From a virus, in IMG/VR virus record IMGVR_UViG_3300045988_063706, positions 1 through 53,359 of that record: DNA of 53,359 nucleotides; one strand, given 5' to 3'. The notes beneath the pieces are model-generated. The model did no database searches, was not told the DNA's origin, and saw only the letters and a list, made by a program, of their open reading frames with translations. Positions 5,179-26,518 of the stretch are shown here, one piece after another. Position numbers and translations under genes: made by a program. Within the stretch, counting starts at the first letter, position 1; every line of letters starts with the position of its first letter.

Positions 5179-6036
5179 ATGGACGACTTTGGAATGGGCT
5201 ATGCTCTCGGTCAGGACTCCAACGGCGGCGGGAACTGTAACAATGGTTTCGGCGGTATGTGGGGAGAGGGTATCTGGGCTGTCATCATCCTCGGTATGAT
5301 TTTCGGTTGGGGCCGAGGCGGATGGGGAGGCTTTGGCGGCGGTGAGGGTATCAACTCTCCGGCCGGTCAGGGTGCTCTTACTCGTGGCGACCTGTGCGCT
5401 GAGTTTAACTTCAACAATCTGGACAACGCTGTCCGGGGTGTTCAGCAGGGTCTTTGCGACGGGTTCTATGCTCAGAACACGGCCCTCATGAACGGCTTCC
5501 ACGGTGTGGACAATGCGGTTTGCAGTCTGGGCTATCAAACTCAGCAGGGCTTCTCCACTCTGGCCGCTCAGATGGCTCAGTGTTGCTGTGACACTCAGAG
5601 AGCGATTGACGGCGTCAATTTCAGCACTTTGCAGGGCTTCAACGGCCTCCAGAATCAGATTGCTTCCTGTTGCTGTGATACTCAGCGACAGATTGAGCGG
5701 GGTTTCTGTGACGTCGGCTATAACATGGCAACCAACACGAACAACATCATCCAGTCTACTCATAACGATACTGACCGGGTCATTGCTCGTCTGGACGCTA
5801 TGGAGAACGCTCGTCAGGCCGAGAAGATTGCCGCTTTGCAGGCTGAGAACCAGACGCTCAAGTTCCAGGCTTCTCAGAATGCTCAGAACGCATTCATTAC
5901 CGCAAATCAGGAGGCTCAGACTGCGGAACTTATTCGCAGAATTGCTCCTACTCCTGTCCCCTCTTACGCTGTTCCGGCCCCTTATCCCTATTGTGGCGGC
6001 TGGAATAACGGATGCGGTTGCGGCTCTTGTTGCTAA
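5179..6036 (+). CDS. Gly-rich / Cys-rich membrane-associated protein with a repeated CCCDTQR motif
   Basis: RBS aaaggagaatatctATG (5179). Gly-rich N-terminus, a TM-like IWAVIILGMIFGW, CCCDTQR twice 29 codons apart (nt 5581 and 5668), a coiled coil, and a C-terminus of CGGWNNGCGCGSCC. Confidence 0.65.
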   Translation: MDDFGMGYALGQDSNGGGNCNNGFGGMWGEGIWAVIILGMIFGWGRGGWGGFGGGEGINSPAGQGALTRGDLCAEFNFNNLDNAVRGVQQGLCDGFYAQNTALMNGFHGVDNAVCSLGYQTQQGFSTLAAQMAQCCCDTQRAIDGVNFSTLQGFNGLQNQIASCCCDTQRQIERGFCDVGYNMATNTNNIIQSTHNDTDRVIARLDAMENARQAEKIAALQAENQTLKFQASQNAQNAFITANQEAQTAELIRRIAPTPVPSYAVPAPYPYCGGWNNGCGCGSCC

Positions 6037-6097
6037 CAATGACACATTCTGCGGAGGGTGGGCATTCCGCCCTCCGCATTGATTAGGAGGAATCTAT

Positions 6098-6502
6098 ATG
6101 GCTTGCAAAACGGCTTGTAAACTGTGCAACAAACTCATCATTTCGCAGTCTGTGACTTTTACTGGAGGGAATCTGATTATCAATCTTCCCGCCGGTAGTT
6201 ATAACGATGGTTGTAAATACTGCATTGTCGTCGCTCAGAGCATTCCATCAACTGCGACCATCAATGCACCGGTATTTATCACCATCGGAACCGGAACTCA
6301 GCAATACCCTCTGAACAAGTGCGATTGCACTCAGGCCACGGCTTGTTCCATTCGTACGAGAACCCGGTATGCGACTCGGGTAGAGACCACTCCTACGAGC
6401 GGCGTCTTCAAACTGCTGGGGAAAATCTGCTGTGCGCCTAACAACAATCTCAGAGGGATTAACGGGACGGCCCCGGTAACTCCGGCCTCGACTTCTGTTT
6501 AA
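6098..6502 (+). CDS. Small Cys-rich protein, unknown function
   Basis: RBS taggaggaatctatATG. Several Cys clusters in 134 aa (CKTACKLC, CKYC, CDC, CC) and a beta-rich composition. Confidence 0.65.
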   Translation: MACKTACKLCNKLIISQSVTFTGGNLIINLPAGSYNDGCKYCIVVAQSIPSTATINAPVFITIGTGTQQYPLNKCDCTQATACSIRTRTRYATRVETTPTSGVFKLLGKICCAPNNNLRGINGTAPVTPASTSV

Positions 6503-6514
6503 GGGGGTTATCAC

Positions 6515-7324
6515 ATGAACCCGAAAATGAAACGTATGCTCGTCAATGAGCGTCGCCGTCGCAAAGACGGAACCTTTATGGGGTATGGTGAACCCTACTC
6601 AGAGCGGAGCGGTAGCAGGGGTGTGAATCCTGATGGAACCACTTATCCAGTCTATCCGAGCATGGTTGTGGAGGCCCGATTTCGTGACCGGGATGGGAGA
6701 GAACATTATGACAATGGTCGGTTCGCTCCTGTTCGAGGAGCCTACGATAGAGGAAGCCCTGCAACTCTTGGGGGATATCCAGTCTATCCTCTCGTTCCTC
6801 CAATCTACGAACATCACGAAGAGATGGAGCCTTGGGGAGATAGGGAATGGGATGATGCTCCTGAGCATAAACCCCATAAACTGAACCGGATAGGGTTTGC
6901 CTCTCCTGATGAAATGGACGATAGCAGGTACGGCTCCAGAGTGGATATGCCCCGAATGAATGAAATGGCATATCGCAAGGGAGAAAAGGCTCACGGCTAT
7001 GCGAGCGGCGTGGAGGATATGCCCATGACAAAGGAACTCGCTATGAAGTGGGTCAAAGAAATGCGTAACTCTGATGGAACCTCCGGCCCTCATTGGACCA
7101 TGGAACAGGCGAAACAGATTATGCAACAGCAGAAAATCGACTGTGACCCGCTTGAATTCTTTGTGGCCTTGAATATGATGTATTCTGATTACTACAAGGC
7201 GGCAAAGGCTCGTAACTGTTCAACCGTTGAACTCTATGCGGCTATGGCAGAAGCATTCCTTGATGACAAGGACGCTCAGCCTGAGAAACTCTCTAAGTAT
7301 TACGAGTATATCGTAAAGCATTGA
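6515..7324 (+). CDS. Hypothetical protein, basic N-terminus, Pro/Tyr/Asp/Arg-rich middle, helical C-terminal domain
   Basis: RBS aagggggttatcacATG. I recognise no motif. Last gene before the terminator. Confidence 0.65.
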   Translation: MNPKMKRMLVNERRRRKDGTFMGYGEPYSERSGSRGVNPDGTTYPVYPSMVVEARFRDRDGREHYDNGRFAPVRGAYDRGSPATLGGYPVYPLVPPIYEHHEEMEPWGDREWDDAPEHKPHKLNRIGFASPDEMDDSRYGSRVDMPRMNEMAYRKGEKAHGYASGVEDMPMTKELAMKWVKEMRNSDGTSGPHWTMEQAKQIMQQQKIDCDPLEFFVALNMMYSDYYKAAKARNCSTVELYAAMAEAFLDDKDAQPEKLSKYYEYIVKH

Positions 7325-10531: not shown

Positions 10532-10833
10532 TCCCCGGTCTGGTTTGTGTCAATGTACTTTACAAGGGTCATGACGCTCAATTTGCTATATGCAACCATA
10601 ACGACGGCCCCTGCGCTTCTCCATTTTTCGAGGTTGTGGTTTTGCTTTGCGCTTGCCTTGTTTTTATGGTCAGGGGTTTTGACTTCAATTCTGAGGGTTC
10701 GCCCCCGGTAACAAGCATTGATATCGGCTCGACCGGAGGCGGAACTTGACCCTTTTAACTTTTCAGCCCTGCAATGAGGGAGAGAGTTTAGATACCTCAG
10801 GATTGACCCCGTGATACTGCCCTCAAGAGCCAT
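10471..10833 (-). CDS. VRR-NUC domain nuclease
   Basis: GRADINACYRGRTLRIEVKTP matches the VRR-NUC G.PD....G....IEVK core. I trimmed the track ORF to the ATG at 10833 (MALEGS...). Confidence 0.7.
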   Translation of the reverse strand: MALEGSITGSILRYLNSLPHCRAEKLKGSSSASGRADINACYRGRTLRIEVKTPDHKNKASAKQNHNLEKWRSAGAVVMVAYSKLSVMTLVKYIDTNQTGEWVFPEDNGCVSWVRIPSLK

Positions 10834-11239
10834 TGTGGACCCCCTTGCCGAGAGTAAAGCGCAACCCCAAACGCTCAGCCCAAAAACTGGGAGACATAGT
10901 GTGCGGAATGGCCTTGTCATCAATGTAGAGGTCAGCATATACTTTCCTCGTATCACTGTTGAACATTTGCTGGACTTCTGCGAGGTTCTCGTTCACGGCG
11001 TCAAACTCAAGGCCCCGCACCCTGCAAAAGTCAACGGCGTCCCACAGTGGCTGACCATCTCTGGATGACCACAGAATGAGCCGAATGCCCTGCGCCTTGA
11101 GTTGATTGCAGAGGTCGAACATTTCATAGTTCGGGTCGCCTATCTCGGGGAACTTATCTTGCACAAGGGTTCCGTCAAAATCAACGGCAACGATTTTCGG
11201 CAAGGTGTTCATCTCGGTTTTAGAAACTTTGTTTTGCAT
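10823..11239 (-). CDS. HAD-superfamily phosphatase (nucleotidase-like)
   Basis: Motif I VAVDFDGTL and the downstream YIDDK. Small cap-less HAD typical of phage 5-prime nucleotidases. Confidence 0.65.
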   Translation of the reverse strand: MQNKVSKTEMNTLPKIVAVDFDGTLVQDKFPEIGDPNYEMFDLCNQLKAQGIRLILWSSRDGQPLWDAVDFCRVRGLEFDAVNENLAEVQQMFNSDTRKVYADLYIDDKAIPHTMSPSFWAERLGLRFTLGKGVHNGS

Positions 11240-11614
11240 TTATTCCTCTCCTATTCTTGCGGCTATTTCAACTCTCATGTGATGCGATACCCACATTCTC
11301 ATCCAGCCGCTGATTTTAGGGTTTTCCTCTTCGTTTAGAGCATACAGTTCCGCATACTCCTCAGAGTACTTTTTATTTACCAAATATCTCAGGGTCTGGA
11401 TATCTTCAAAGGTGGACATACTGAGTTTAACAGAAAAGTCGCCTCTTGCCCAGATGGAGAGGAATGCCCCGAACTCAGACTTCTCACAGCCGGTAACTCG
11501 AAAAAATGTATCATACAGGTCTGTGAATACCCTGCAAAAATGCACCCATTTCAAGTCCCCGTCTCGTACCACCTTGACGAGAATTTTGCTTAGTTGAGGC
11601 ATTCCTCTCACCAC
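11240..11614 (-). CDS. Hypothetical protein (124 aa)
   Basis: Tightly packed between the ThyA-like and HAD genes. Confidence 0.55.
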   Translation of the reverse strand: MVRGMPQLSKILVKVVRDGDLKWVHFCRVFTDLYDTFFRVTGCEKSEFGAFLSIWARGDFSVKLSMSTFEDIQTLRYLVNKKYSEEYAELYALNEEENPKISGWMRMWVSHHMRVEIAARIGEE

Positions 11615-11615
11615 C

Positions 11616-12416
11616 TTATCTTACAAGGTTAGGAACCTGCTGAGGGATAGGACAGGCCCCGCCGTCACAGTGAGCAGAATGCTTTTCCCTCCACTCATCC
11701 AGACTGCGCTCATACAGGTGCAGGCTCCCGGCGAAATGGGTATAGGTTCCGATATCAACCCCGAGCCGAAATGCAAGCAAAATCTGGAAACAAGTGAATG
11801 AGAAAACATCATACGGGAACCCGGTCCACAGGTCATTGGAGCGCATATAGGTCGTCGCATGGAGTTTTCCGTCCCGGATTAAATACTGGAGCGCAACGGT
11901 GCAAGGGACGTCTTTTGTGGGGAATGTGTTGTAGTCCTCGGCATCCTTGATATGGATAACTGCCTGACGGCTGAGCGGGTTCTTGGTCAGGGCCTCAACC
12001 ACATACTCGAATTGGTCAAACCCGAACCGCTCAAAGATGCGCTGACCGTATGCAGAATTGACAGTCACGCCATCGTCAGACATACGCTCCCAAACCTTGG
12101 AGAATACGCTGATATCCTTGAGCCGGTTAGAGCCGGACAGATACCACAGCAGTTCCCCCACGGCGTACCGCATGGGCATTCTCCGGTCGTCGCTCGTAAC
12201 GATATTTCGGGTCGGGTCATTGATTACCGTGATAGCGTTCAGGCACTCAGCAACGACAGCCCCGTCACGAGAGGGGTCATTCTTACCGGCCTCAGCCTGT
12301 TTGTGGAACATATCGAACCACTCCTGCCACGCCTCATTGACCGTCCTGGTCTCAACCAGAATACCAGTCGGGGTCAGGGTCCCGCCATTCATGGGGATAT
12401 TGCATACGTCACTCAT
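11616..12416 (-). CDS. Thymidylate-synthase-fold pyrimidine C5 transferase. It has Asp at the base-discriminating position, so it is a candidate dCMP hydroxymethylase or methylase.
   Basis: Strong RBS GAAAAGGAGGAAAACGGATATG at 12416. VPCTVALQY (catalytic Cys), YMRSNDLWTGFPYD, SLHLY. The Asp lies 31 residues after the Cys, where E. coli ThyA has Asn177 and T4 gp42 has Asp179. Confidence 0.75.
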   Translation of the reverse strand: MSDVCNIPMNGGTLTPTGILVETRTVNEAWQEWFDMFHKQAEAGKNDPSRDGAVVAECLNAITVINDPTRNIVTSDDRRMPMRYAVGELLWYLSGSNRLKDISVFSKVWERMSDDGVTVNSAYGQRIFERFGFDQFEYVVEALTKNPLSRQAVIHIKDAEDYNTFPTKDVPCTVALQYLIRDGKLHATTYMRSNDLWTGFPYDVFSFTCFQILLAFRLGVDIGTYTHFAGSLHLYERSLDEWREKHSAHCDGGACPIPQQVPNLVR

Positions 12417-12879
12417 ATCCGTTTTCCTCCTTTTCAAGTTTGGTTCCTGCAAAGTTGGCGTCATACCGGATGACCGGCAAAATACTCTCCGCCATTAGTC
12501 CCTCGAAGCGACTGAGCAGTTCCGGGACGGGGATGAGGGTAACTTCACCCCTTGCCGCTAAACGCTCCATGATGAGTCCCTCAGGAGCCGTGACGAGGAT
12601 TACCTTGCCCTCGGCGTCAAGTATGCGAGCCTCAAGCCGGTGCAACTCCTCTTTTGTGATATGCCGCTCCTCTTTCTTTTGGTACACGAACTGACCGTAG
12701 CAGAACCGGTCAGCAATAATGTTCCGGGTCATAGCCGCCGAAATGATACTGTCGAAAAAGTCATAATCGTTCGGGGTTTTGGCGGTGCAATGAACGATAT
12801 CAGCGTTCAGCAGTTTGGAAAGGAACTTTGCAAGTGTAGTCTTGCCAGTTCCGTCACAGCCCTCGAGAACAACCAGCAT
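12409..12879 (-). CDS. Thymidylate-kinase-like dNMP kinase
   Basis: VLEGCDGTGKTT P-loop and the DRFCYGQFVYQ motif (Tmk DR..S..AYQ). 156 aa. Confidence 0.7.
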   Translation of the reverse strand: MLVVLEGCDGTGKTTLAKFLSKLLNADIVHCTAKTPNDYDFFDSIISAAMTRNIIADRFCYGQFVYQKKEERHITKEELHRLEARILDAEGKVILVTAPEGLIMERLAARGEVTLIPVPELLSRFEGLMAESILPVIRYDANFAGTKLEKEENGYE

Positions 12880-13305
12880 TCAATTCACCCCCGTTGAACC
12901 CCATCCGCCTCTGGACTTATCAGGGAGGGTTTCTACCTCTGTGAATTCGACCTCAGGCTGGAGAGGGTAAATCATAAATTGACAGATGCGCTCATTCTTT
13001 TCGATGGTGACGTCCCGTGTAGCATAGGCAAAGAAACCCCATACGTCGTCATTCCCACAGAAAGAATTCTCAAAAACCCCGATGGAGTTTGCTTGCAAAA
13101 GACCTGTCCGCTTGAATGTGCTGGAGCGGGGCGCAAGTATGGCTCCATACCCCTCAGGGAGTTTCATGGACACGCCGAGCGAAATAAGGGCCGATTCTCC
13201 TGCTTTCAGGGTAACACGCTCAGCGGCCCGGAGGTCAATCCAGTCACCGACAGGGGTTTTCTTCGGCAACTCAACATCGGTGTGCCGCTTGATTAAAATG
13301 TTCAT
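12880..13305 (-). CDS. dut: dUTP diphosphatase (trimeric dUTPase)
   Basis: GYGAILAPRSS, GVFENSFCGNDDVWGF and a C-terminal RGGWGSTG. Confidence 0.9.
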   Translation of the reverse strand: MNILIKRHTDVELPKKTPVGDWIDLRAAERVTLKAGESALISLGVSMKLPEGYGAILAPRSSTFKRTGLLQANSIGVFENSFCGNDDVWGFFAYATRDVTIEKNERICQFMIYPLQPEVEFTEVETLPDKSRGGWGSTGVN

Positions 13306-14348
13306 GACTTCCTCCGTTTCTTCTTGCCCTTTTTGGGTAGGTTCAGGTTATCGGCACAGGTGATGCCGGTTTCCTTTTCCCAGTCTCTCGCCCGGAGTAC
13401 AGTGAGCGGCTCGTGCTTCTCCAGAACGATATCGTAGTCCTCCTCAGTGGGTTCCTCCATTTCCTGCTTGCCTAAATGGTCAGGCAACAGGCCCTCCCTC
13501 ATGGGGATATGGTCACACACGTTACAGGGGAAGAAAGTCCGATGGTCATGGAACAGAATGCGCCGAGCGGCCTCATACCGAGGATGCCGCCACATATCGT
13601 CAAAACACTTTACCTCCGGGTCCATGCAGTTGACAACAGGGTATTGACCCCGGAAGTCCTGACAGCACATAGCAACCCATCCATCCCAGCGGAAAGACAT
13701 CTCCCGGAAAATGCGGGAGCATACCCGGTCAGAGTAGTCAGTCCGGGGAGGCATACCAGCCCCACAGTGATTCGTCAGTTTGCGGGAAACACAAATCTCC
13801 TCTTCCTCAATAGCGGGGATGATGAGGAGCCGATGCTTCTTGTACTGCTTCGGAGCATACAGGGGGACACCCTTTTGCATACGGACGAATTCAACATGGG
13901 TTCCAGTCTCTTCCTCGTACTTGTCCAACAGTTCTTGGATTTCATCATCGTCAAACTTGCTGTCCTTGTACTCGTCCAGAGTTACGTCGTTCAACCCGGC
14001 GTCAAACATTTTGCAAATAGCGTTGAGGTCTTTGCGAACCCCATAGCCATTCGTCAAAATCTGGACCCAGTGAGTGGGGAGAACCTTGCGAATGAGTTTA
14101 ATGCACGAATAGAAGTTCGGATGCAGGGCGTTCTCCCCATGCCCCGCAATCAGGATGCGAGGGTTATACCCACTCTCCGCAATCAGTTCGCACTCACGGC
14201 GGAGGACATCCTTGCTGATGAAATGCAGTTTGCGCTCAAACCCGTTAGAACCGCAAAAGAAACAAGAGCGGTTGCAACCCTGAACGAGTTCGATTTGAAC
14301 CGTGTTCGGCTTGTAAAAAGCCGAGTTTCTGTACTTCTTTTTCTTCAT
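13302..14348 (-). CDS. Radical SAM enzyme with a SPASM/twitch-like C-terminal Cys cluster
   Basis: QGCNRSCFFCG (CX3CX2C, nt 14251..14280). C-terminus VCSRIFREMSFRWDGWVAMCCQDF...FFPCNVCDH. Lys-rich tail. Confidence 0.85.
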   Translation of the reverse strand: MKKKKYRNSAFYKPNTVQIELVQGCNRSCFFCGSNGFERKLHFISKDVLRRECELIAESGYNPRILIAGHGENALHPNFYSCIKLIRKVLPTHWVQILTNGYGVRKDLNAICKMFDAGLNDVTLDEYKDSKFDDDEIQELLDKYEEETGTHVEFVRMQKGVPLYAPKQYKKHRLLIIPAIEEEEICVSRKLTNHCGAGMPPRTDYSDRVCSRIFREMSFRWDGWVAMCCQDFRGQYPVVNCMDPEVKCFDDMWRHPRYEAARRILFHDHRTFFPCNVCDHIPMREGLLPDHLGKQEMEEPTEEDYDIVLEKHEPLTVLRARDWEKETGITCADNLNLPKKGKKKRRKS

Positions 14349-14351
14349 CTC

Positions 14352-15311
14352 TTACCACCTTACGATGACCGGCTTGGACTCATGGAGTTTATGGTACTGT
14401 TGCCAGTTGATGTCCCCGAACTTATACTGACCATCAGGGAACTTGAATGTTTCCCTTAGATAATGCCGTATCTCCATCTCCATGAGGCCATCATATTCCA
14501 GTTTGTGGAGATGCCGGTTCTTGTCCGGGTTATGCGGGTCACGAACGACCGAGGCAACTTGGTCGTCAATGTAGTCGTAGCACAGGCACGGAATATTAAA
14601 GCAGTCATAACCATTCTGGAGAACCTCTGCGGCGAACCCGATGTCATCTCCATGGAGGTTGAATGCGTCGGGCATTCTTATCCCCGCTTTCTTGATACCT
14701 TTCATATTCAGTATCTTGGTCTGACGAGGAGTAGGGCCTTTGTCTATCTGATACTTGATATCAGCGAGGTCCGCATGGTTTGAAAACCGCTGTTTCCGTA
14801 TGTTACCGAGCAGGACGCTTGGATGCTCTCTAAAGACCTCTCGTGCTATGCGCCCCGTCAACTGCAAAACTTTTTGAGGAATTAAGGGGTCATCTTCCCA
14901 GTCCTTGACCCCGGTGTGCATACTACATTTTTCTCCTGAACCGTTTCGCCCGGTATAGAGGAACTGGAGATACTTGATGTCATCATCCATATCCATAATG
15001 CAGGGCAAATGGTTTTCAATGGCATAGTCCATTATGAACTGACGTGTACTGCCTACTCCGGAGACTGCGCCCTTGGGAATGGGAACCATGTTCATCCCAC
15101 GTTTGAGGAGTTTGCGGTTTGCCTTTTTATAGGCCGCATACTGTTCCTCCCGCACAACGATGAAGACACGCTCAAGGGCCTCGTCAGTGAACAGAGGCAG
15201 GATTTTCTCGCCAGTAACAAACTCAGGCCGATTATAGGAGGGTATGAATACGAATGGCAGGTCTTTCTCAGTGGTCTCGTTGAGAATGCGCTCCATCTTA
15301 CTGCGCTTCAT
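14352..15311 (-). CDS. GT-A-fold glycosyltransferase-like protein (DXD type), candidate DNA or nucleotide glycosyltransferase
   Basis: RBS AAAAGGAGGCTGACCCATG. FVFIPSYNRP first strand, then CIMDMDDDI about 85 residues later. The family assignment is tentative. Confidence 0.5.
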   Translation of the reverse strand: MKRSKMERILNETTEKDLPFVFIPSYNRPEFVTGEKILPLFTDEALERVFIVVREEQYAAYKKANRKLLKRGMNMVPIPKGAVSGVGSTRQFIMDYAIENHLPCIMDMDDDIKYLQFLYTGRNGSGEKCSMHTGVKDWEDDPLIPQKVLQLTGRIAREVFREHPSVLLGNIRKQRFSNHADLADIKYQIDKGPTPRQTKILNMKGIKKAGIRMPDAFNLHGDDIGFAAEVLQNGYDCFNIPCLCYDYIDDQVASVVRDPHNPDKNRHLHKLEYDGLMEMEIRHYLRETFKFPDGQYKFGDINWQQYHKLHESKPVIVRW

Positions 15312-15368
15312 GGGTCAGCCTCCTTTTCAGAGAGGGAGGGGCTTTTATACCCCTCCCCCGTGGTGGGA

Positions 15369-16085
15369 TTAGTCGTCCTCTTCCCAGTCGTCATCCTCGT
15401 CATCGTCCTCGTCGTCCTCCTCATCGGAAGACTTCTTGGACTTCTTTGCCGGGGCTTTCTTCTTGGCGGGAGGGGCTTTCTTGGACTTGCGCTTGGGGGC
15501 GGGTTCCTCATCCTCATCCTCGTCCTCATCGTCTTCGTCCTCTTCCTCGTCCTCGTCATCATCCTCAGGCTCAGGCTTCTTCTTTGCCGGGGCTTTCTTG
15601 GCGGGAGTCTTCTTGGCGGGGGCTTTCTTCTTGGGGGCCTCCTCCTCTTCCTCCTCGTCATCGGTATCGTCCTCATCCTCATCATCGAGGTCCTCGTCCT
15701 CAACCTTGCCGCCCTTTCCGGCCTTGTAATAGTCGGAAATCTTGGCTCTGGTCTGGCCGTTGTATTCCTCCCAGAAAACCTCGATGTCGCAGACCTTTCC
15801 AATCAGCTTGTCCAGGTCAATCTTGAGTTTGCCGTCGGCTTTCATGCCGATAGCCTGGAGGAATGCCTTGAACTTCCACAGGGCCTTGTCGGCCAGAACG
15901 AACGACTCGAACACGGCGGAACCCTTGTCCTCACCCTTGGTGATTTCGAACTTGAACTGGAGCATATCGTCCCCGCCCTGAGAGGTCTTCTCCAGGATTT
16001 CGGCGACCTTTGCGGTGTGAATGCCCTCGCTCGCCTTGGTGTAACTCTCTACACCAGTAAAGTCCAGTTTCTTAACTCTTGCCAT
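15369..16085 (-). CDS. DUF669-like phage ssDNA-binding protein with a long block-polyampholyte C-terminal tail
   Basis: The N-terminal ~125 aa (GIHTAKVAEILEKTSQGGDDMLQFKFEITKGEDKGSAVFESFVLADKALWKFKAFLQAIG) fit the DUF669 pattern found beside Sak4-like ATPases. The tail alternates poly-D/E blocks with KKAPAKK blocks. Confidence 0.65.
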   Translation of the reverse strand: MARVKKLDFTGVESYTKASEGIHTAKVAEILEKTSQGGDDMLQFKFEITKGEDKGSAVFESFVLADKALWKFKAFLQAIGMKADGKLKIDLDKLIGKVCDIEVFWEEYNGQTRAKISDYYKAGKGGKVEDEDLDDEDEDDTDDEEEEEEAPKKKAPAKKTPAKKAPAKKKPEPEDDDEDEEEDEDDEDEDEDEEPAPKRKSKKAPPAKKKAPAKKSKKSSDEEDDEDDDEDDDWEEDD

Positions 16086-16100
16086 TTTGATAGTTCCTCC

Positions 16101-16298
16101 TTAAAAATTATATGTCTTAACAGATACCGAATCACACGGGAGCAGGTCCACGCACTGACGGAAAACCTTGCCCATGATTTCCGGCCCTGTCTTGACTACA
16201 CCAGAACCACGCCGAATCTCTCTGACGGTTGTAGGCTTGCCATCCTTATCACGATTGTAGATGACACCCTTTGCCCGGAATTGAACGTACTCAGCCAT
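16101..16298 (-). CDS. Hypothetical protein (65 aa)
   Basis: Packed between the ATPase and SSB genes. Confidence 0.5.
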   Translation of the reverse strand: MAEYVQFRAKGVIYNRDKDGKPTTVREIRRGSGVVKTGPEIMGKVFRQCVDLLPCDSVSVKTYNF

Positions 16299-17040
16299 CC
16301 TTTTCCCCTCCCATCAGACCGAGTTTACTGAGTTTTGCAAATGAGGGGTTTATCATGACGGCCGGAACCTTTACTTCCTTCGGGGTTTGCAGTTTGGTCC
16401 AATAATAGGGGTTCGGCCCGAGATGCGCCGCATACCGAACAACAGTCTTTTCAACCCCATCCTCAACGACCTCTTTCTTGAGGCGAGTGGTGTGGAACCC
16501 ATAGTTCGCCATTCCCTCCAGATAGGTTCGAGCGCCCTTTGTGGTGCTCGGCCTTGCGTCAGGTAGGATTTCATCCTCCATGCCCTCAATAGCGTCCATA
16601 GCCTCGTGACATGACAGGATTACCCATGTATAGAGGGAGAGTTTGTATGCGAGGCGAATGAGTTCCTCAGTCTCTGTCTTGAGGTCTCCCCACATTTGCT
16701 GAGTCATTTTCTTCTTTTTCTTGACAGCATTTTCGTCAATCCACACATTCGTGACCATGGAAAAGGTGTCCACAAAGACTGACTCGTACCCTGCGCCCTT
16801 TTCCTTAATGAGTTCCTTAAGAACCCCTTTGACGCTGTCAATGTTGTCTGCCCGGAGGCCACTGATATTCTTCTTGTTGCGAATGGTGTTGGAGCCATCA
16901 TCACCGACCTGGACATAGAGTTGCGGCTTGGGCCATGTGGAGCCGAACTCGGTTTTACCCGTGTTAGACTTACCCCATAGCACAACGAGTTTCCGCTGTC
17001 CTAAATCAGCGATATCCTTGACCCCGTCAAGATAGGCCAT
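16291..17040 (-). CDS. Sak4-like RecA-fold ATPase (AAA_24 type)
   Basis: Walker A LWGKSNTGKTEF and Walker B-like VFVDTFS. Sits in a Cas4-nuclease / ATPase / SSB recombination module. Confidence 0.75.
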   Translation of the reverse strand: MAYLDGVKDIADLGQRKLVVLWGKSNTGKTEFGSTWPKPQLYVQVGDDGSNTIRNKKNISGLRADNIDSVKGVLKELIKEKGAGYESVFVDTFSMVTNVWIDENAVKKKKKMTQQMWGDLKTETEELIRLAYKLSLYTWVILSCHEAMDAIEGMEDEILPDARPSTTKGARTYLEGMANYGFHTTRLKKEVVEDGVEKTVVRYAAHLGPNPYYWTKLQTPKEVKVPAVMINPSFAKLSKLGLMGGEKDG

Positions 17041-18208: not shown

Positions 18209-18682
18209 TTACTCCTCCTCTTCGTACTCCTCGTCATCGTCTTCCTCTTCGTCCTCCTCAGGCTTGGGCTGAGGCTTCTTGGCGGGCTTCTTCTTGCCCT
18301 TGGACTTCTTGGCAGGGCGGGGAGGCTCTTCCTCCTCATCCTCTTCATCCTCGTCTTCCTCGACCTCGGCGGCCTTGGCCTTTGCCTTGGTCTTGGACTT
18401 CTTGTCCTCAGTCTTCTTGGACTTCTTCTTGGAAGTCTTGGCCTGAGCGCCGGAGGGCTCATAGGAGCCGTCATCCTCGGTGATATAGTTTGCGAAACGG
18501 TCCTGCTTCGCCTTGGGCTCAACCTGCTTGCCGGTCTTGCGACTGAACTTCGCCTTTCCGATGCGGGTCTCCAGAGTGACAGTGTTCTTGTCGGCGGCGA
18601 GGACTTCCTTAACGCCGACGGCGATACCCGTGAACATATGCAGAATAACGGTGTCGCCCTTTTTCAGATTAGCCAGACTCAT
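18209..18682 (-). CDS. Hypothetical early protein with a block-polyampholyte C-terminal tail
   Basis: First gene after the promoter at 18758..18786. A folded-looking ~70-aa N-terminus, then K-rich and D/E-rich alternating blocks (KKKSKKTEDKKSKTKAKAKAA / EVEEDEDEEDEEEE / PAKKSKGKKKPAKKPQPKP / EEDEEEDDDEEYEEEE). Confidence 0.65.
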   Translation of the reverse strand: MSLANLKKGDTVILHMFTGIAVGVKEVLAADKNTVTLETRIGKAKFSRKTGKQVEPKAKQDRFANYITEDDGSYEPSGAQAKTSKKKSKKTEDKKSKTKAKAKAAEVEEDEDEEDEEEEPPRPAKKSKGKKKPAKKPQPKPEEDEEEDDDEEYEEEE

Positions 18683-18822: not shown

Positions 18823-20535
18823 TCAATGCGTACCCCATGGGCCGACCCCTATATCACAGTCAAGCGGCACTTTCAGTTCGACGCCGAAAGTGTCCATAGC
18901 GGCGGGGTGAAGCATTATCCGTCGAATTTCATCGACAATCCAGTCTTTGCATTCCTCAGGGAATTCACCGAGGATGGAGTCATGCACAGTCCCAACGATT
19001 TTCAGGCCCTCTCCCTTGAGTTCCTTGTGGATTTGCGTGGCGGCTGATATGAGCAGGTCTGACCCCGTACCTTGTACCGGCGTATTGATTGCTCGTCTCT
19101 CCGCTGAGGCCTTTTCCCACTTATTCGCAGAGTATATCAGCGGGAGTTTACGGAAACGCCCGAACTTATTATAGACCCCGCCCATAGCCTCACAGAGTAG
19201 GGCTTGCTCATGATGCCATGGTAACAGACGGGAATATTTTGCGAAAAACTTTTCCCGAAACTCAGTCGCCTCAGCGAGTGTGAAGATTACTCCATAGGAG
19301 TTATATGCGTAGTCAACGAATTTCTTTGCCAGCATACCATAGAGGAACCCGAAATTCACGGCTTTTGCCTTGCCTCGCTCCTCCTTTGTAGGCTCTCTCC
19401 CCCCGGTCATGAGTTTCGCCGTAGTGGTATGAATGTCGCCTCCATGCAGATAAATGTCCAGCATGGTCTTATCATTCGCATAATCGGCCGCTATCCGTAG
19501 CTCCAATTGAGAATAGTCAGCCTCAAAGAACAGCCTCCCCGGAGGGGCCTTGTAAATGGCTCTCACGTCCTTTGTGCGAGGCACTTGCTGGAGGTTTGGG
19601 TTTTGGCATGAGGTTCGTCCTGATACCACGTTGGTCAGGTTGAACGACGGGTGAATGCGCTTGTCAGGACCGAGGTCTCCCTCCCAGCGGTTGAGGAACA
19701 TTTTGTTCAGGGTATTCGCCGCCTTATAGTCCAGGATGAGTTGAGGCAGTTTATGGCCCTTTGCCGCAAGCCGTTTGAGGACAGCGGCGTCCGCTGAGGG
19801 TTTGCCGGTTTTCTTTGACTTCTTGAGTATGGGCAAGCCCTCTTTGTCGAATAGGACCTCTGCTACTTGCCCCGAACTGTTCCAGTTGATATCATACCTT
19901 GACTTGAGTTGTGCAAGGCAGTCTTTCTCAATCTTTGCATATTTCTTTTGGCATTCATGCAGAGCAGGAATATCCACATAGGCCCCATTCCGCTCGACGT
20001 CACGATACATGAGATAGGCAGGGCGCAACAACTCACGATAGATTTTCATTTGTACGTCCGTCATCTTCTCAAAAAAGAACTGAAAGAGTTCCCATGTATA
20101 GCGCACGTCTTTTCGCAGATATGGGCGAATGCTTTTTGACTTGCCGTTGGTCTTCTCTTTCTTTGAGATATCCCAGTCAGGGACCCCGAGGTACACTTGC
20201 GCCATCTTTTTCAGGCCATGCTCAGCGGCGAGGTCATAGGCCGTACCCATCAGCATGACGTCATCGTGAATGGGCAATTTGATTCCGAACTTTGCCTCGA
20301 TGAACAGAGTATCAAATTTACCGTTCTGGAATATAGTTTTCATCTTATCCGAGCGCATACGCTCAACCGCTTGCATAAAGGCTTTCACATCTGAATGAGA
20401 AGCCATATTGAACGTCTTTATCTTGCATTCGGAATTGACGTCTTCTGCCAGCCCTATTCCAATCCACGTTATCTCGTCCTTGAACCGATTGAGACCGGTG
20501 GTTTCGATATCTATGGTTGCATACTTGTATTTCAT
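18823..20535 (-). CDS. Family A DNA polymerase with a 3'-5' exonuclease domain
   Basis: ATIDIETTGL (Exo I), SCQNPNLQQVPR, ADYSQLELRI (motif A), RGKAKAVNFGFLYGM (motif B), VHDSIL (motif C). Confidence 0.95.
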   Translation of the reverse strand: MKYKYATIDIETTGLNRFKDEITWIGIGLAEDVNSECKIKTFNMASHSDVKAFMQAVERMRSDKMKTIFQNGKFDTLFIEAKFGIKLPIHDDVMLMGTAYDLAAEHGLKKMAQVYLGVPDWDISKKEKTNGKSKSIRPYLRKDVRYTWELFQFFFEKMTDVQMKIYRELLRPAYLMYRDVERNGAYVDIPALHECQKKYAKIEKDCLAQLKSRYDINWNSSGQVAEVLFDKEGLPILKKSKKTGKPSADAAVLKRLAAKGHKLPQLILDYKAANTLNKMFLNRWEGDLGPDKRIHPSFNLTNVVSGRTSCQNPNLQQVPRTKDVRAIYKAPPGRLFFEADYSQLELRIAADYANDKTMLDIYLHGGDIHTTTAKLMTGGREPTKEERGKAKAVNFGFLYGMLAKKFVDYAYNSYGVIFTLAEATEFREKFFAKYSRLLPWHHEQALLCEAMGGVYNKFGRFRKLPLIYSANKWEKASAERRAINTPVQGTGSDLLISAATQIHKELKGEGLKIVGTVHDSILGEFPEECKDWIVDEIRRIMLHPAAMDTFGVELKVPLDCDIGVGPWGTH

Positions 20536-23802: not shown

Positions 23803-24252
23803 TTATTTCTTAGGAGTAAACCCTTTATATCCGGGTTCGGCTTTACAGGAGACACAAGGCAGAGCGTTCGGGTCAGGCCCATCATACAGGCACAAATGAC
23901 AGGGAGCGTCAGGGACGACTCTATCTGTCATAGTGACCTGTTGCGTGTCCCCCTGCAACCAGCGCACAAGTCGGTCGCCCTTACGAGCCGCCGCCTCAAC
24001 GATTTCCTCGTCCGAGATATTGAAAATGGCTTGCACATGGTCCAGGGCATTGAACACGTCCCCGCACTCTTCCAGCACCTTGTTTCTGAGGCTTTGAATG
24101 GCTTCCTCATGGGTATCAAACCGAGGGTATTTTGTCAGGACGCATGAGAGTTCATTCAGTTCCTCAACGGACACCAGCACTTGATTGACGTTTCCGTACC
24201 GCTGTCTCGCTGAGGCAAGGGCTTTTCGTGTTCTGTCGAATAACGCTTGCAT
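23803..24252 (-). CDS. MazG-like nucleoside triphosphate pyrophosphohydrolase with a C-terminal Cys4 ribbon
   Basis: SVEELNEL ... VLEECGDVFNAL (EExxE...EExGD metal-binding pattern). PCHLC...PCVSC at the C-terminus. Confidence 0.6.
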   Translation of the reverse strand: MQALFDRTRKALASARQRYGNVNQVLVSVEELNELSCVLTKYPRFDTHEEAIQSLRNKVLEECGDVFNALDHVQAIFNISDEEIVEAAARKGDRLVRWLQGDTQQVTMTDRVVPDAPCHLCLYDGPDPNALPCVSCKAEPGYKGFTPKK

Positions 24253-24568: not shown

Positions 24569-25036
24569 TCAGTTCCTCACGTCCGGGGCGTCCCAGTCCT
24601 TTTCCCAAATGACAGTGACACCAGAGTCCTCGAAAATACGTTGGGTCTCCTCACTGATTTTCTGTTGCCGCCCATAGATGACCCTCGTGATACCGGCCGA
24701 GACAATGGCACGAGCGCAAGCCTCGCACGGATAGCGAGTGACAAAAATGGTTGTCCCGGTGAGGTCTTCTCTTGCGCCACAGATAGCGTCAACCTCGGAA
24801 TGGATTGCCCTGCAATCAGCCGGGGAACGGTGAGTCTTGTCATTGTCCCCATACTTCTCAATCCGGAGACAGCCCCGATACTTGCAGAGGTCAGGGATTG
24901 CCCGGTTCGCACCAAAACTCACCGCTCGGCCATGCTTCACAATAACGGCCCCGACCGTGACCTTAGTGCAACCAGACATGATTCCGGCATAAATGTTCGC
25001 CATGTCTAACCAGTTACTCCACCCCATTACTCGCAT
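24569..25036 (-). CDS. dCMP deaminase (cytidine/deoxycytidylate deaminase fold)
   Basis: RBS GGAGGAGCATCACAATG. HSEVDAI (H-x-E) and YPCEACARAI (PCxxC) zinc motifs. Confidence 0.9.
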   Translation of the reverse strand: MRVMGWSNWLDMANIYAGIMSGCTKVTVGAVIVKHGRAVSFGANRAIPDLCKYRGCLRIEKYGDNDKTHRSPADCRAIHSEVDAICGAREDLTGTTIFVTRYPCEACARAIVSAGITRVIYGRQQKISEETQRIFEDSGVTVIWEKDWDAPDVRN

Positions 25037-25418
25037 TGTGATGCTCCTCCTCTCTCATAATCCCATCGGCTTGAATGTTGTTCTGGATGCGCTCAACGAT
25101 AACGGCGATGAATGTGGTATTCGTGACCTTGCCGCTGTTCATGCTCACCACATTCCCGAAATACTTCTTGCGAGTGTCCTCCGCCATGTTATTGAATGCG
25201 CTCTCAATAGCGTGGCGAATGGCTCTCTCAACTCTGGACGTGGTAGAGTCCACTTCCTTTGCAATATCAGGGTACAGTTTCCCGGTCATGTTCCGCAGGT
25301 ACTCCCGGTCATTGTAGACCATCTCAACTCCGACCTTGAGATAGTCCCACCCCAAAAGACCGGGGTTTATGCCAACATCCAGCAGGGTATCAGAAATCAT
25401 CCATTGTACGGAAGTCAT
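25014..25418 (-). CDS. Stand-alone Spo0A C-terminal (DNA-binding) domain protein, no receiver domain
   Basis: RBS AAAAGGAGGAAAACTGATG at 25418. [43 protein letters not shown]...[15 protein letters not shown] is near-collinear with B. subtilis Spo0A [43 protein letters not shown]...KPTNSEFIAMVADKL. Confidence 0.9.
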   Translation of the reverse strand: [134 protein letters not shown]

Positions 25419-26518
25419 CAGTTTTCCTCCTTTTGGTAGTTCCACGGCTCAGTCGTGGGATGATAGCAGTTGCGGGGACGACCCGTACCATTCACAGCCT
25501 TGATATATTTGCTCAACTCACAGAAGCAATTCTCAAGGGCCATGACATTCAGACAGCGGTCTCCCTCGGGGCGATACTTGAACAGTTTCTCAGGGTTCCA
25601 TCCAAACAGACGAGCATAGTCCCCGGCCTGGAGCGCAATAAAGTACTCGTCAATGTTGTCCCGGAGGAAGAACAGGGCCTCCTCATGGGTCATACCGCCG
25701 TAGTCACTGAACACAAGGTCAAGACCCCGCTTGCACCCCGGCCCCGCAACAGTAAACTCATTCTCGGAGAACGGAAAGTCCTCAATATAGGTCAGGTCAA
25801 CGAATACCTGATAGGCAAGGAATGAGGCAAACCCACGAATCTCCCGGATGATATTGTATGCGGCCTCCTGGTCTTTGGCTTTCATCAGGCGGCGGAACAC
25901 CTTGCGCTCTTTTAACCATGGACCGATATGGAATACCCGCAGGGGGATGTCCGGCTCGTAGTCCTTGAATTTCTTCCCCATTTCCTCAGACGGAGCACGA
26001 CTAAAGCCCTCCCCGTCCGGGAATTTCCATGCGTACTTTGTGCCGCCCTGATTATATGCGCTGGACCACCACTTGCGGTCAGGGCTCTCAATGAGGAGCC
26101 GCTTATAGGTCGGGCGAACTGCTTCCTTTAGGGCCAGCCCATCATAGATTTCATCAGCCGACCACGGCCCCCCGAAATCCGTGAATGTGTTCGGGTTATT
26201 CCAGGACCGGAGCAGGAATGTATTCAGCACCTTTTCCTCCAGAGTGAGTTCAGGGTTCGTGGAAACCAGTTCAATCAGCGCACGGCTGACACGGTCATCC
26301 TCCCGGAATACGTTGGTAAACTTGTACTCCTTAAGAACCGGGTTCTTAGTCCACGGCTGAGGTTTACCGAGGATATCCTTGCGAACGTGAATACGATACC
26401 GCTCAACAATGAAGTCCCGGAGATGCGCCGTGTTCTCCTCATTGAGGTATGGTTCCGCCTTTCTGATGCGCTTTTCGTTGACGCCACAGTAGGCAACGTC
26501 TCTCGGCTTTGTCTGCAT
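25418..26518 (-). CDS. Candidate DNA base hypermodification protein (alpha-glutamyl/putrescinyl-thymine pyrophosphorylase-like, aGPT-Pplase-like)
   Basis: 366 aa. PQPWTKNPVLKEYKFTNVFREDDRVS matches my memory of the PWT..pIL..YRF.NV.RE.DrvT signature of that family, and FLAYQVFVDL lies downstream. From memory only, not searched. Confidence 0.45.
   Translation of the reverse strand: MQTKPRDVAYCGVNEKRIRKAEPYLNEENTAHLRDFIVERYRIHVRKDILGKPQPWTKNPVLKEYKFTNVFREDDRVSRALIELVSTNPELTLEEKVLNTFLLRSWNNPNTFTDFGGPWSADEIYDGLALKEAVRPTYKRLLIESPDRKWWSSAYNQGGTKYAWKFPDGEGFSRAPSEEMGKKFKDYEPDIPLRVFHIGPWLKERKVFRRLMKAKDQEAAYNIIREIRGFASFLAYQVFVDLTYIEDFPFSENEFTVAGPGCKRGLDLVFSDYGGMTHEEALFFLRDNIDEYFIALQAGDYARLFGWNPEKLFKYRPEGDRCLNVMALENCFCELSKYIKAVNGTGRPRNCYHPTTEPWNYQKEEN

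Follow-up and report, generated by a model that had tools for sequence, protein, structure and literature searches.

A candidate pathway for radical SAM tailoring of glycosylated 5-hydroxymethylcytosine in phage DNA

Why would a phage encode a radical S-adenosylmethionine (SAM) enzyme directly behind a glycosyltransferase (GT) and in one run with a ThyA-fold enzyme? The question is raised by IMG/VR virus record IMGVR_UViG_3300045988_063706, of which positions 1 to 53,359 (53,359 nt, the whole stretch analysed, hereafter the window) form a phage-like genome (~53 kb) whose minus strand carries a long replication arm. Five adjacent minus-strand open reading frames (ORFs) had been interpreted from the letters alone, in what we call the sequence-only reading, as a candidate new DNA base-hypermodification pathway. 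Profile, fold and gene-neighbourhood comparisons suggest that the radical SAM enzyme probably tailors, and likely oxidises, a sugar linked to DNA. The whole reading, that is, pre-replicative replacement of cytosine followed by post-replicative glycosylation and radical SAM tailoring of the sugar, was given a probability of roughly 0.55.

The gene block and its three central enzymes

The block runs from 15311 to 11616 and contains, in 5' to 3' order, the following genes.

14352..15311, minus strand: GT-A glycosyltransferase of the TAGT family, 319 amino acids (aa), 15311→14352 (PF20691, phrog_4519, phrog_842, AlphaFold2 (AF2) model)
13302..14348, minus strand: BtrN-like twitch radical SAM enzyme, 348 aa, 14348→13302 (profile and Foldseek matches to BtrN)
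12880..13305, minus strand: dUTPase-family protein with an atypical motif III, 141 aa, 13305→12880 (PF00692, phrog_135)
12409..12879, minus strand: small P-loop kinase, Tmk/YorR-like, 156 aa, 12879→12409 (Thymidylate_kin, phrog_761)
11616..12416, minus strand: ThyA-fold predicted deoxycytidylate 5-hydroxymethylase, 266 aa, 12416→11616 (PF00303, residue signature)

All five genes were found as the sequence-only reading had described them, each abutting or overlapping the next: a 3-nt gap separates the GT and radical SAM genes, the radical SAM and dUTPase genes overlap by 4 nt, the dUTPase and kinase genes abut directly, and the kinase and ThyA genes overlap by 8 nt. The ThyA ORF begins at 12464 in the mechanical ORF list; the start at 12416 was preferred to the ATG at 12464 because AAGGAGG lies 8-9 nt 5' of the ATG at 12416 and because an independent gene call on an identical contig likewise gave a product of 266 aa. 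AAGGAGG also precedes the GT start. The motifs reported for the radical SAM enzyme (CNRSCFFC), the GT (FIPSYNRP and DMDDD), the kinase (VLEGCDGTGKTT and DRFCYGQFVYQ) and the ThyA-fold protein (VPCTVALQY, YMRSND, GFPYD and HLY) were all read in the translations.

The radical SAM protein matched Radical_SAM at 9e-11 and SPASM at 4.6e-4 (score 20.9, cutoff 21.5), and reached none of the curated family models. Across 35 homologues the CX3CX2C motif (C25/C29/C32) and C210, C228, C229, C275 and C278 were invariant and C195 nearly so; many arginines of the twitch domain that are absent from BtrN were invariant as well. The profile of these homologues matched BtrN (4m7t) best (E 3e-19), with both the core and the C-terminal domain covered, whereas all other solved structures matched in the core only, at 2e-8 or worse; the auxiliary-cluster residues Cys169/187/232/235 of BtrN aligned with C210/C228/C275/C278. 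Fold comparison, which the sequence-only reading had named as a check, returned BtrN and SpeY for this enzyme and GT-A folds for the GT: with the radical SAM AF2 model (predicted local distance difference test, pLDDT, 90), Foldseek placed BtrN at ranks 1-2 (E 6e-12, template-modelling (TM) score 0.82-0.83 on the target) and SpeY at ranks 3-6, and the anaerobic sulfatase-maturating enzyme (anSME) was among the much weaker matches.

A full SPASM motif has seven Cys (CX9-15GX4C ... CX2CX5CX3C ... C), and the second half is represented in this family by CX2C only. The SPASM/twitch-like Cys cluster noticed earlier thus held up as twitch and not as full SPASM, there being one auxiliary-cluster site of the BtrN/SpeY type. 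The enzyme is accordingly classed as a predicted one-auxiliary-cluster twitch enzyme with C210/C228/C275/C278 as putative [4Fe-4S] ligands. Both the radical SAM and GT families are mildly basic (median isoelectric point ~8.7-8.8), which is compatible with a nucleic-acid substrate and not decisive.

Three other assignments were tried and rejected: a two-cluster SPASM peptide maturase (CX2C only, score under the cutoff, no RRE domain, no precursor ORF), a viperin/pVip (match limited to the N-terminal core, residues ~17-108, E ~1e-4) and a spore-photoproduct-lyase (SPL)-like isomerase of the M6 gp53 type (gp53 is SPL-like, and tblastn over the 50,697 phage records gave no M6 or SP10 radical SAM match, weak N-terminal similarity to three Campylobacter phages being all that appeared). 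One homologue, P0253 (623 aa), is split by an intein with an HNH endonuclease inside the twitch domain.

The GT matched TAGT (PF20691) at 3.7e-9, with 37.2 bits against a Pfam cutoff of 27.5, as well as phrog_4519 (glycosyltransferase, 2.6e-19) and phrog_842 (beta-glucosyl-HMC-alpha-glucosyltransferase, 7.6e-11). Its AF2 model (pLDDT 94) matched the GT-A folds of POMGNT1, TarS, GalNAc-T2, TarP and SpsA at E ~1e-6, and the GT-A assignment first drawn from motifs is borne out by family score and fold alike. D109-D110-D111 is invariant in 34 homologues. Most GT homologues carry PF20691, and they are present in 174 Microbacterium phages; the GT cassette of Microbacterium phage Morrigan holds an Asp-type ThyA homologue, a thymidylate kinase, a MazG-like protein and an aGPT-Pplase1 protein. 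A ThyA-like gene shares the block with the TAGT gene in the window and in most related loci. From family, fold and context, the GT is predicted to glycosylate the 5-hydroxymethyl group of cytosine in phage DNA from a nucleotide-sugar.

The ThyA-fold protein matched Thymidylat_synt (PF00303) at 4e-28. Its nearest solved relative is the CMP 5-hydroxymethylase MilA (2.7e-37), with true thymidylate synthases (2e-19) and T4 gp42 (3e-17) far behind. Catalytic Cys172 (codon 11903..11901) and Asp203 of GFPYD (11810..11808) lie 31 residues apart, and the proposed exchange of Asn177 for Asp was confirmed by alignment: the residue aligns with Asp179 of T4 gp42 and Asp186 of MilA, whereas E. coli ThyA and the deoxyuridylate (dUMP) hydroxymethylase of PaMx11 have Asn. 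In E. coli numbering the signature reads L143D, C146, R166, S167, D169 and N177D. Cys146, Arg166 and Ser167 are invariant in the alignment, L143D is the Asp of KDVPC, three residues ahead of the catalytic Cys, Asp169 is kept within YMRSND, and the positions of MilA Ala176 and Lys133 hold Ser (YMRSND) and Arg (LSRQ).

An acidic residue at the Leu143 position gives water access and hence a hydroxymethyl rather than a methyl product, and some Asp177 ThyA homologues are flavin- and O2-dependent synthases of 5-hydroxy-deoxycytidylate (5-hydroxy-dCMP), marked by Asn169 (PMC13326640, 2026). The MilA Ala176/Lys133 positions set ribo- versus deoxyribo-preference, the Ser/Arg pair being deoxyribo-specific (PMC5175136). 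Hydroxymethyl is favoured over methyl or hydroxy because of L143D, the retained Asp169 and the Ser/Arg pair; the 5-hydroxy-dCMP synthase reading was dropped on account of Asp169, not Asn, in YMRSND. The sequence-only reading had allowed a hydroxymethyl or a methyl substituent on dCMP; its cytosine-type signature stands, and methyl is disfavoured through L143D. Judged by this signature, the enzyme is a predicted 5-hydroxymethyl-dCMP synthase, deoxyribo- and cytosine-specific. Its closest phage relatives are found in an Agathobaculum phage (56%) and in Enterococcus phages (41-47%), and in Enterococcus phage VPE25 the 41%-identical homologue adjoins a dUTPase and a T4-type beta-glucosyltransferase.

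Distribution and neighbourhoods of the radical SAM family

A profile scan of IMG/VR returned 165 relatives of the radical SAM enzyme, from which 80 loci were kept and collapsed to 61 groups at 90% identity; ORFs were called on these loci and searched with hidden Markov models (HMMs) built for this analysis. An indexed search gave 134 clusters of the family at 90% identity, and 352 representative clusters at 50% identity were found among 1.84 billion (E ≤ 1e-30). By tblastn against 50,697 phage records, the protein found no counterpart beyond weak, N-terminal similarity to three Campylobacter phages, whose radical SAM cluster is rich and unrelated to the window family. A family-profile scan of 185,579 species genomes gave core-level noise only (23-38% identity, partial lengths), and therefore no host or prophage was identified. 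The family is phage-restricted, with no convincing relative in cultured phages or species genomes, and for lack of a cultured relative it would be missed by isolate-based mass spectrometry.

A TAGT-like GT gene lay within 1.5 kb of the radical SAM gene in 41 of the 61 groups (within 100 bp in 23), a ThyA-like gene within 5 kb in 40 and an HMUDK_hel gene within 10 kb in 40, some of the latter without a nearby ThyA-like gene or GT. Within 10-kb flanks, the ThyA homologue was of the Asn177 type, for 5-hydroxymethyluracil (hmU), in 35 groups and of the Asp177 type, for 5-hydroxymethylcytosine (5hmC), in six. Linkage to ThyA-like, HMUDK_hel and TET/JBP genes was kept down to ~31% identity. The published thymidine clusters do not, as the sequence-only reading had stated, pair a SPASM radical SAM enzyme with a GT-A protein; that statement does not extend to metagenomes, where most members of this family sit in hmU-type (Asn177) clusters.

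Two natural proteins unite TAGT and radical SAM in a single polypeptide. P0236 was found on five contigs (JGI and Logan assemblies), between HMUDK_hel and ThyA-like genes, and P0249 directly follows a Tet_JBP dioxygenase gene that overlaps the start of the fusion (L110, 1177-3857). L110 thereby combines O2-dependent and O2-sensitive enzymes within one cassette. Linkage across dozens of divergent contigs, together with the fusions, supports the earlier idea that GT-like and radical SAM enzymes decorate a hydroxymethylated base. Because Asp-ThyA, Asn-ThyA and TET/JBP contexts all occur, the GT and radical SAM unit is joined to all three known routes to 5-hydroxymethylpyrimidines. The bolder claim, to which we give slightly less than even odds, is that the BtrN-like enzyme is the first radical SAM enzyme to edit a DNA-attached sugar, with a keto, deoxy or rearranged glycosyl-5-hydroxymethylpyrimidine new to genomes as its product, and that GT and radical SAM form a portable cassette placed on Asp-ThyA hmC, Asn-ThyA hmU and TET/JBP routes.

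A close, syntenic locus, L003 (IMG/VR 3300032007_000114), has a 78%-identical radical SAM enzyme in the same block arrangement without the dUTPase. Upstream of its GT, at 5492-7038, are a gene of the 5-hmdU-DNA-kinase family (4e-23) and an ADDT-like gene (weak, 1.7e-4), both absent from the window; their position beside an Asp177 hydroxymethylase hints at kinase and amino-acid-transferase chemistry on 5hmC too. For contexts that lack a GT, a relaxed HMM search and hhalign comparison of five conserved neighbour clusters with GT profiles were negative for a hidden GT, and a 342-aa neighbour family (A6), guessed from its motifs to be a GT-B, was discarded after giving no meaningful Pfam or PDB match. 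L010 carries a radical SAM-TAGT pair with no ThyA-like gene in its 8-kb flanks; it also encodes (1-742, 10971-12266) a SAM synthetase, PAPS-reductase-like, DUF5131 and ParB_N proteins and a second radical SAM protein (431 aa), and may be a different DNA-modification system.

Accessory genes, proposed mechanism and alternatives

Beyond the block, the following features of the window bear on the pathway or its setting.

11240..11614, minus strand: 124-aa protein, no detectable family (L003 has a 34.5% identical homologue in the corresponding place)
10823..11239, minus strand: BT0820-type haloacid dehalogenase (HAD) phosphatase (NF046079, PDB 2obb; syntenic in L003)
25418..26518, minus strand: HMUDK_hel/aGPT-Pplase1-like protein, 366 aa (PF18723, 1.3e-56)
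24569..25036, minus strand: dCMP deaminase, as T4 cd (phrog_174, 7.5e-35)
23803..24252, minus strand: MazG-like NTP pyrophosphohydrolase, candidate dCTPase (phrog_2245, 4.5e-7, a weak match from which the function is suggested)
18823..20535, minus strand: family A DNA polymerase (phrog_17, 1.4e-113)
25014-25445, minus strand: protein with a match to the Spo0A C-terminal DNA-binding domain (8.4e-30)

The kinase matched Thymidylate_kin (PF02223) at 5e-9 over residues 5-35 only, and phrog_761 at 5e-15; with 43 bits against the 83-bit cutoff of TIGR00041, its description as Tmk-like holds for the N-terminal part and fails for the full length. The best solved relative is SPbeta YorR (uncharacterised, 2e-9). 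Wherever the kinase profile matched in Asp-type relatives, a homologous kinase gene lay between the radical SAM (or GT) and Asp-type ThyA genes, and the protein is predicted to be a 5-hydroxymethyl-dCMP kinase. The dUTPase-like protein matched PF00692 at 1e-14 and phrog_135 at 2.5e-37, with B. subtilis YncF/YosS as best solved relatives (8e-41). Its motif III (residues ~75-81) reads GVFENSF in place of GVIDESY, with Asp changed to Glu and Tyr to Phe, which may reflect an altered specificity, e.g. for dCTP; the enzyme possibly supplies dUMP or dCMP and prevents dUTP (or dCTP) from entering DNA. The minus strand also encodes, outside the block, a dCMP deaminase, a MazG-like NTPase and an HD hydrolase, which together with the dUTPase-like protein resemble the pool-remodelling set of T4.

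The five-gene block stands as the pathway proposed, with further parts outside it, namely the HMUDK_hel protein, the dCMP deaminase and the MazG-like NTPase. The HMUDK_hel protein, 11 kb from the block, aligned with the 'aGPT-Pplase1 domain' protein of Microbacterium phage Morrigan at an hhalign probability of 99.6%. The family is typical of hydroxymethylpyrimidine hypermodification clusters; a Walker A motif was found in none of 56 members, and no assigned function for the family was found in the publications examined, whose characterised enzymes are those of clade 2.

The packed run itself extends 3' past the five genes, the 124-aa ORF following after a 1-nt gap and the HAD phosphatase gene abutting it. 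The 124-aa product had no Pfam, PHROG or NCBIfam match. The phosphatase matched NCBIfam NF046079 at 8e-30, under its cutoff, and PDB 2obb at 2.4e-20, and is a possible nucleotide or sugar-phosphate phosphatase of uncertain role. For the sugar-phosphate phosphatase of the DLP3/RB69 arabinose route (PMC13326640), the 1xpj protein scores highest; an arabinose-pathway type was rejected for the window enzyme, its best solved match being the BT0820-type 2obb (uncharacterised) and not 1xpj. Because both genes are conserved in L003, they may belong to the same pathway.

The replication arm encodes an SNF2 helicase, a family A polymerase, a primase, an exonuclease and a Sak4-like protein. No near-identical DNA was found among the 50,697 phage records, no tRNAs were found in the window, and promoter and terminator scans of it gave chance-level results only. 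A G+C-rich hairpin (GGGGAGGGG...CCCCTCCC, 15336-15368, minus strand) lies between the stop codon of a single-stranded DNA-binding (SSB)-like gene and the GT ribosome-binding site; it lacks a T-run and was therefore not called a terminator, and may be a regulatory or processing site. The proteins at 15369-16085 and 18209-18682 (both minus strand), one DUF669/SSB-like and the other without a PHROG match, have long low-complexity tails rich in Asp, Glu and Lys, whose repeats give rise to long spurious plus-strand ORFs (e.g. 15009-16331, 440 aa). The Spo0A_C-domain protein points to an endospore-forming Firmicute host and possibly interferes with sporulation control. Firmicute-type gene content (Spo0A_C, the B. 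subtilis/SPbeta-like dUTPase and kinase, the Agathobaculum-like ThyA) suggests an anaerobic host.

The proposed mechanism starts with the ThyA-fold enzyme, which on its sequence signature would convert dCMP to 5-hydroxymethyl-dCMP. By analogy with T4, the Tmk/YorR-like kinase would raise this to the diphosphate and host NDP kinase to the triphosphate, the family A polymerase would incorporate it, and the dUTPase-like enzyme, MazG-like NTPase and dCMP deaminase would remodel the nucleotide pools. The TAGT enzyme, as its family, fold and context suggest, would glycosylate 5hmC in DNA from a nucleotide-sugar. A 5'-deoxyadenosyl radical formed by the twitch enzyme would then abstract a hydrogen from the DNA-linked sugar, and the auxiliary [4Fe-4S] cluster would act as electron sink and take the second electron; conversion of a sugar hydroxyl to a ketone, giving a keto-sugar, seems the likeliest reaction in view of the characterised relatives, the conserved cluster ligands and the sugar-handling enzymes encoded next to, or fused with, the twitch enzyme. 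The outcome would be phage DNA protected from nucleases by a glycosyl-5hmC that has been tailored by radical chemistry without any need for oxygen.

Several observations count against this pathway. The radical SAM enzyme is only ~15% identical to BtrN, a level at which dehydrogenation, dehydration, epimerisation and decarboxylation cannot be told apart from the letters, and we infer the biochemical steps, as everything beyond the sequence signatures. The activity of the dUTPase-like protein is uncertain, given Glu for the catalytic Asp in motif III. No sugar-enzyme neighbour was found in 5 of the 61 groups, and ~10 groups have the radical SAM gene in a virion or lysis module, with neither a ThyA-like gene nor a GT nearby, where its target may be other than DNA. 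There (L004 8957-9619, L008 8960-9619 and relatives) it is followed by the gene of a 226-aa protein (A5; motifs PHSDD and GHPFH), which is fused to the radical SAM enzyme in P0238. This protein matched PIG-L, a sugar de-N-acetylase, over its full length at a sub-threshold E of 1e-3, and its family profile had no match in the PDB; the PIG-L-like partner is a second, weaker link to sugar chemistry, taken as a lead only. Finally, three loci with a 76-82% identical GT (L111-L113) have GT, kinase and ThyA genes and no radical SAM gene, and L019 (radical SAM 68% identical) has the order SSB, radical SAM, kinase and Asp-type ThyA with no TAGT gene in 21 kb. From these loci the radical SAM enzyme appears to be an optional tailoring add-on whose dependence on the GT is not absolute.

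The same loci bear on the idea that the radical SAM enzyme acts before the GT and turns a host nucleotide-sugar, for example UDP-glucose or UDP-N-acetylglucosamine, into an unusual donor (keto, deoxy or epimeric) from which the TAGT enzyme would modify 5hmC. BtrN and SpeY do act on free small molecules, GT fusion and adjacency are also compatible with substrate channelling, and the invariant arginines could bind a nucleotide diphosphate. However, the L111-L113 relatives glycosylate without a radical SAM enzyme, which implies that the GT needs no special donor, and L019 keeps the radical SAM enzyme without a TAGT gene; the block holds no nucleotidyltransferase or other donor-pathway gene, and nucleotide-sugar oxidation is normally the work of NAD-dependent enzymes. 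We consider this order of events unlikely. Equally unlikely in our estimate is oxidation of the 5-hydroxymethyl-pyrimidine to a 5-formyl-pyrimidine, an anaerobic counterpart of TET in parallel to or instead of glycosylation. anSME offers a precedent for the step from -CH2OH to -CHO and is among the fold matches, the most constant partners of the family are makers of hydroxymethylpyrimidine (Asp-ThyA, Asn-ThyA, TET/JBP), L019, L045/L060 and L054 have a radical SAM and a ThyA-like gene and no GT, and an anaerobic host, as gene content suggests, would fit. Oxidation of the hydroxymethyl group would nevertheless remove the GT acceptor, yet in 23 groups the GT and radical SAM genes are translationally coupled, and two proteins join both enzymes in one chain; fusion and adjacency to the PIG-L-like protein indicate a sugar substrate, and the anSME match is far weaker than those to BtrN and SpeY.

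Explanations outside DNA decoration fare worse. A role as a viperin-like (pVip) modifier of nucleotides or as a counter-defence factor could be argued from weak PADLOC pVip matches (2.4e-4 and 4.8e-4), from viperins among the core-only PDB matches (~2e-8) and from a GT-neighbourhood survey that lists 'annotated viperins' near GT and ThyS genes. These matches stop at the N-terminal radical SAM core; the Cys-rich twitch domain, invariant here and aligned with BtrN, is missing from viperins, and the TAGT fusions speak for a biosynthetic role, so that we hold a viperin to be very improbable. Scarcely any weight was given to the other alternative, in which the GT serves a wall polymer or a virion protein and the radical SAM enzyme matures a ribosomally synthesised, post-translationally modified peptide (RiPP) with a nearby precursor; the sequence-only reading had named a wall-polymer transferase and such a peptide maturase beforehand as its possible undoing. 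The teichoic-acid enzymes TarS and TarP are among the GT-A fold matches, SPASM/twitch domains are frequent in peptide maturases, and part of the family is encoded in virion or lysis modules. Yet published phage DNA GT-A enzymes hit TarP as well, the GT passes the cutoff of TAGT, a family of DNA-modification enzymes, no RRE domain was found, the overlapping block leaves no space for a precursor ORF, and linkage to ThyA-like, HMUDK_hel and TET/JBP genes persists at ~31% identity. Glycosylation of 5hmC followed by radical tailoring of the sugar is thus the reading retained.

Comparison with known systems

T-even phages (gp42 dCMP hydroxymethylase, gp1 dNMP kinase, gp56 dCTPase/dUTPase, cd deaminase, alpha/beta-glucosyltransferases) and the similar module of VPE25 share with the window the Asp at N177, the acidic residue at L143, a kinase, pool enzymes and, as predicted for the window, post-replicative O-glycosylation of 5hmC. 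The T4 GT is, however, a GT-B enzyme and that of the window a GT-A/TAGT enzyme, the window kinase is Tmk/YorR-like, the window hydroxymethylase is nearer to MilA than to gp42, and T-even phages have no radical SAM enzyme. The arabinosyl-5-hydroxycytosine (5hoC) pathway of RB69, DLP3 and RL38JI (PMC13326640) likewise shares N177D, acidic L143, MilA as top structural relative, and a kinase with DNA GTs; its enzymes carry D169N and use flavin and O2, whereas the window enzyme has Asp169 and is predicted to be folate-dependent.

The TET/5mYOX- and ThyS-linked phage GT clusters (PMC8256090; bioRxiv 10.1101/2023.12.21.572611) resemble the window in GT family and fold, TarP-like matches included, and in the link to a ThyA homologue and a dCMP deaminase. 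Neither PMC8256090 (Burke 2021) nor bioRxiv 10.1101/2023.12.21.572611 mentions radical SAM enzymes, and the latter lists 'annotated viperins' among nearby 'immune' genes; in the window family, by contrast, GT and radical SAM enzyme are coupled to one another or fused. Such viperin labels could reflect core-only similarity, as the window family weakly hits pVip. Thymidine hypermodification clusters (5-HMUDK, aGPT-Pplase/AADT, M6 gp53; PMC5889632, PMC8989533) also tailor a 5-hydroxymethylpyrimidine after replication, include a radical SAM tailoring step and co-occur with HMUDK_hel/aGPT-Pplase1-like proteins, as in the window. M6 gp53 is SPL-like and isomerises a glycine adduct, whereas the window family is BtrN-like with a twitch domain and pairs with GTs instead of amino-acid transferases.

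Full-text literature on radical SAM enzymes and phage DNA glycosylation or hypermodification yielded only work on the SPL-like isomerase and reviews, and the statement that this combination maps to no described pathway still holds, literature searches having found no description of it. Pre-replicative hmC formation with glycosylation is an established pathway type, and the new element is the BtrN-like radical SAM step coupled to it. Tailoring of 5-hydroxymethylpyrimidines is known to proceed by glycosyl transfer, amino-acid transfer, pyridoxal phosphate (PLP)-dependent decarboxylation, a flavin lyase, acetylation and one SPL-like radical SAM isomerase. If the reading is true, radical carbohydrate chemistry on DNA joins these steps, and the radical SAM genes logged as 'viperins' in GT-neighbourhood surveys are explained. 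Whether phage DNA withstands restriction enzymes and CRISPR nucleases depends on its hypermodifications, which also supply enzymes for epigenetic sequencing and DNA labelling, and the cassette defined here, of three or four genes, is directly testable.

The sugar/cyclitol dehydrogenases BtrN (butirosin) and SpeY (spectinomycin) share with the window enzyme a partial TIM-barrel core with CX3CX2C and a C-terminal twitch domain, the auxiliary Cys spacing being 18/45/3 in BtrN and 18/47/3 in the window. The window enzyme differs from BtrN by its low identity (~15%) and ~100 extra residues, and its family from both by the extra invariant Cys229, the near-invariant Cys195, the invariant arginines and its restriction to phages. 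BtrN and SpeY act on a free aminocyclitol; the substrate here is presumably a nucleic-acid- or nucleotide-linked sugar. In the mildiomycin and blasticidin pathways, a MilA hydroxymethylase, a GT and the radical SAM enzymes MilG/BlsE occur together, and the radical SAM enzyme acts on a sugar carried by (hydroxymethyl)cytosine. BlsE is distant from the window radical SAM enzyme (E 0.12 by sequence, TM 0.45 by fold), and these pathways act on free ribonucleotides and N1-glycosides, whereas the window hydroxymethylase has the deoxyribo-specific Ser/Arg pair. The three enzyme classes are nonetheless the same, and MilA is the nearest solved relative of the window hydroxymethylase.

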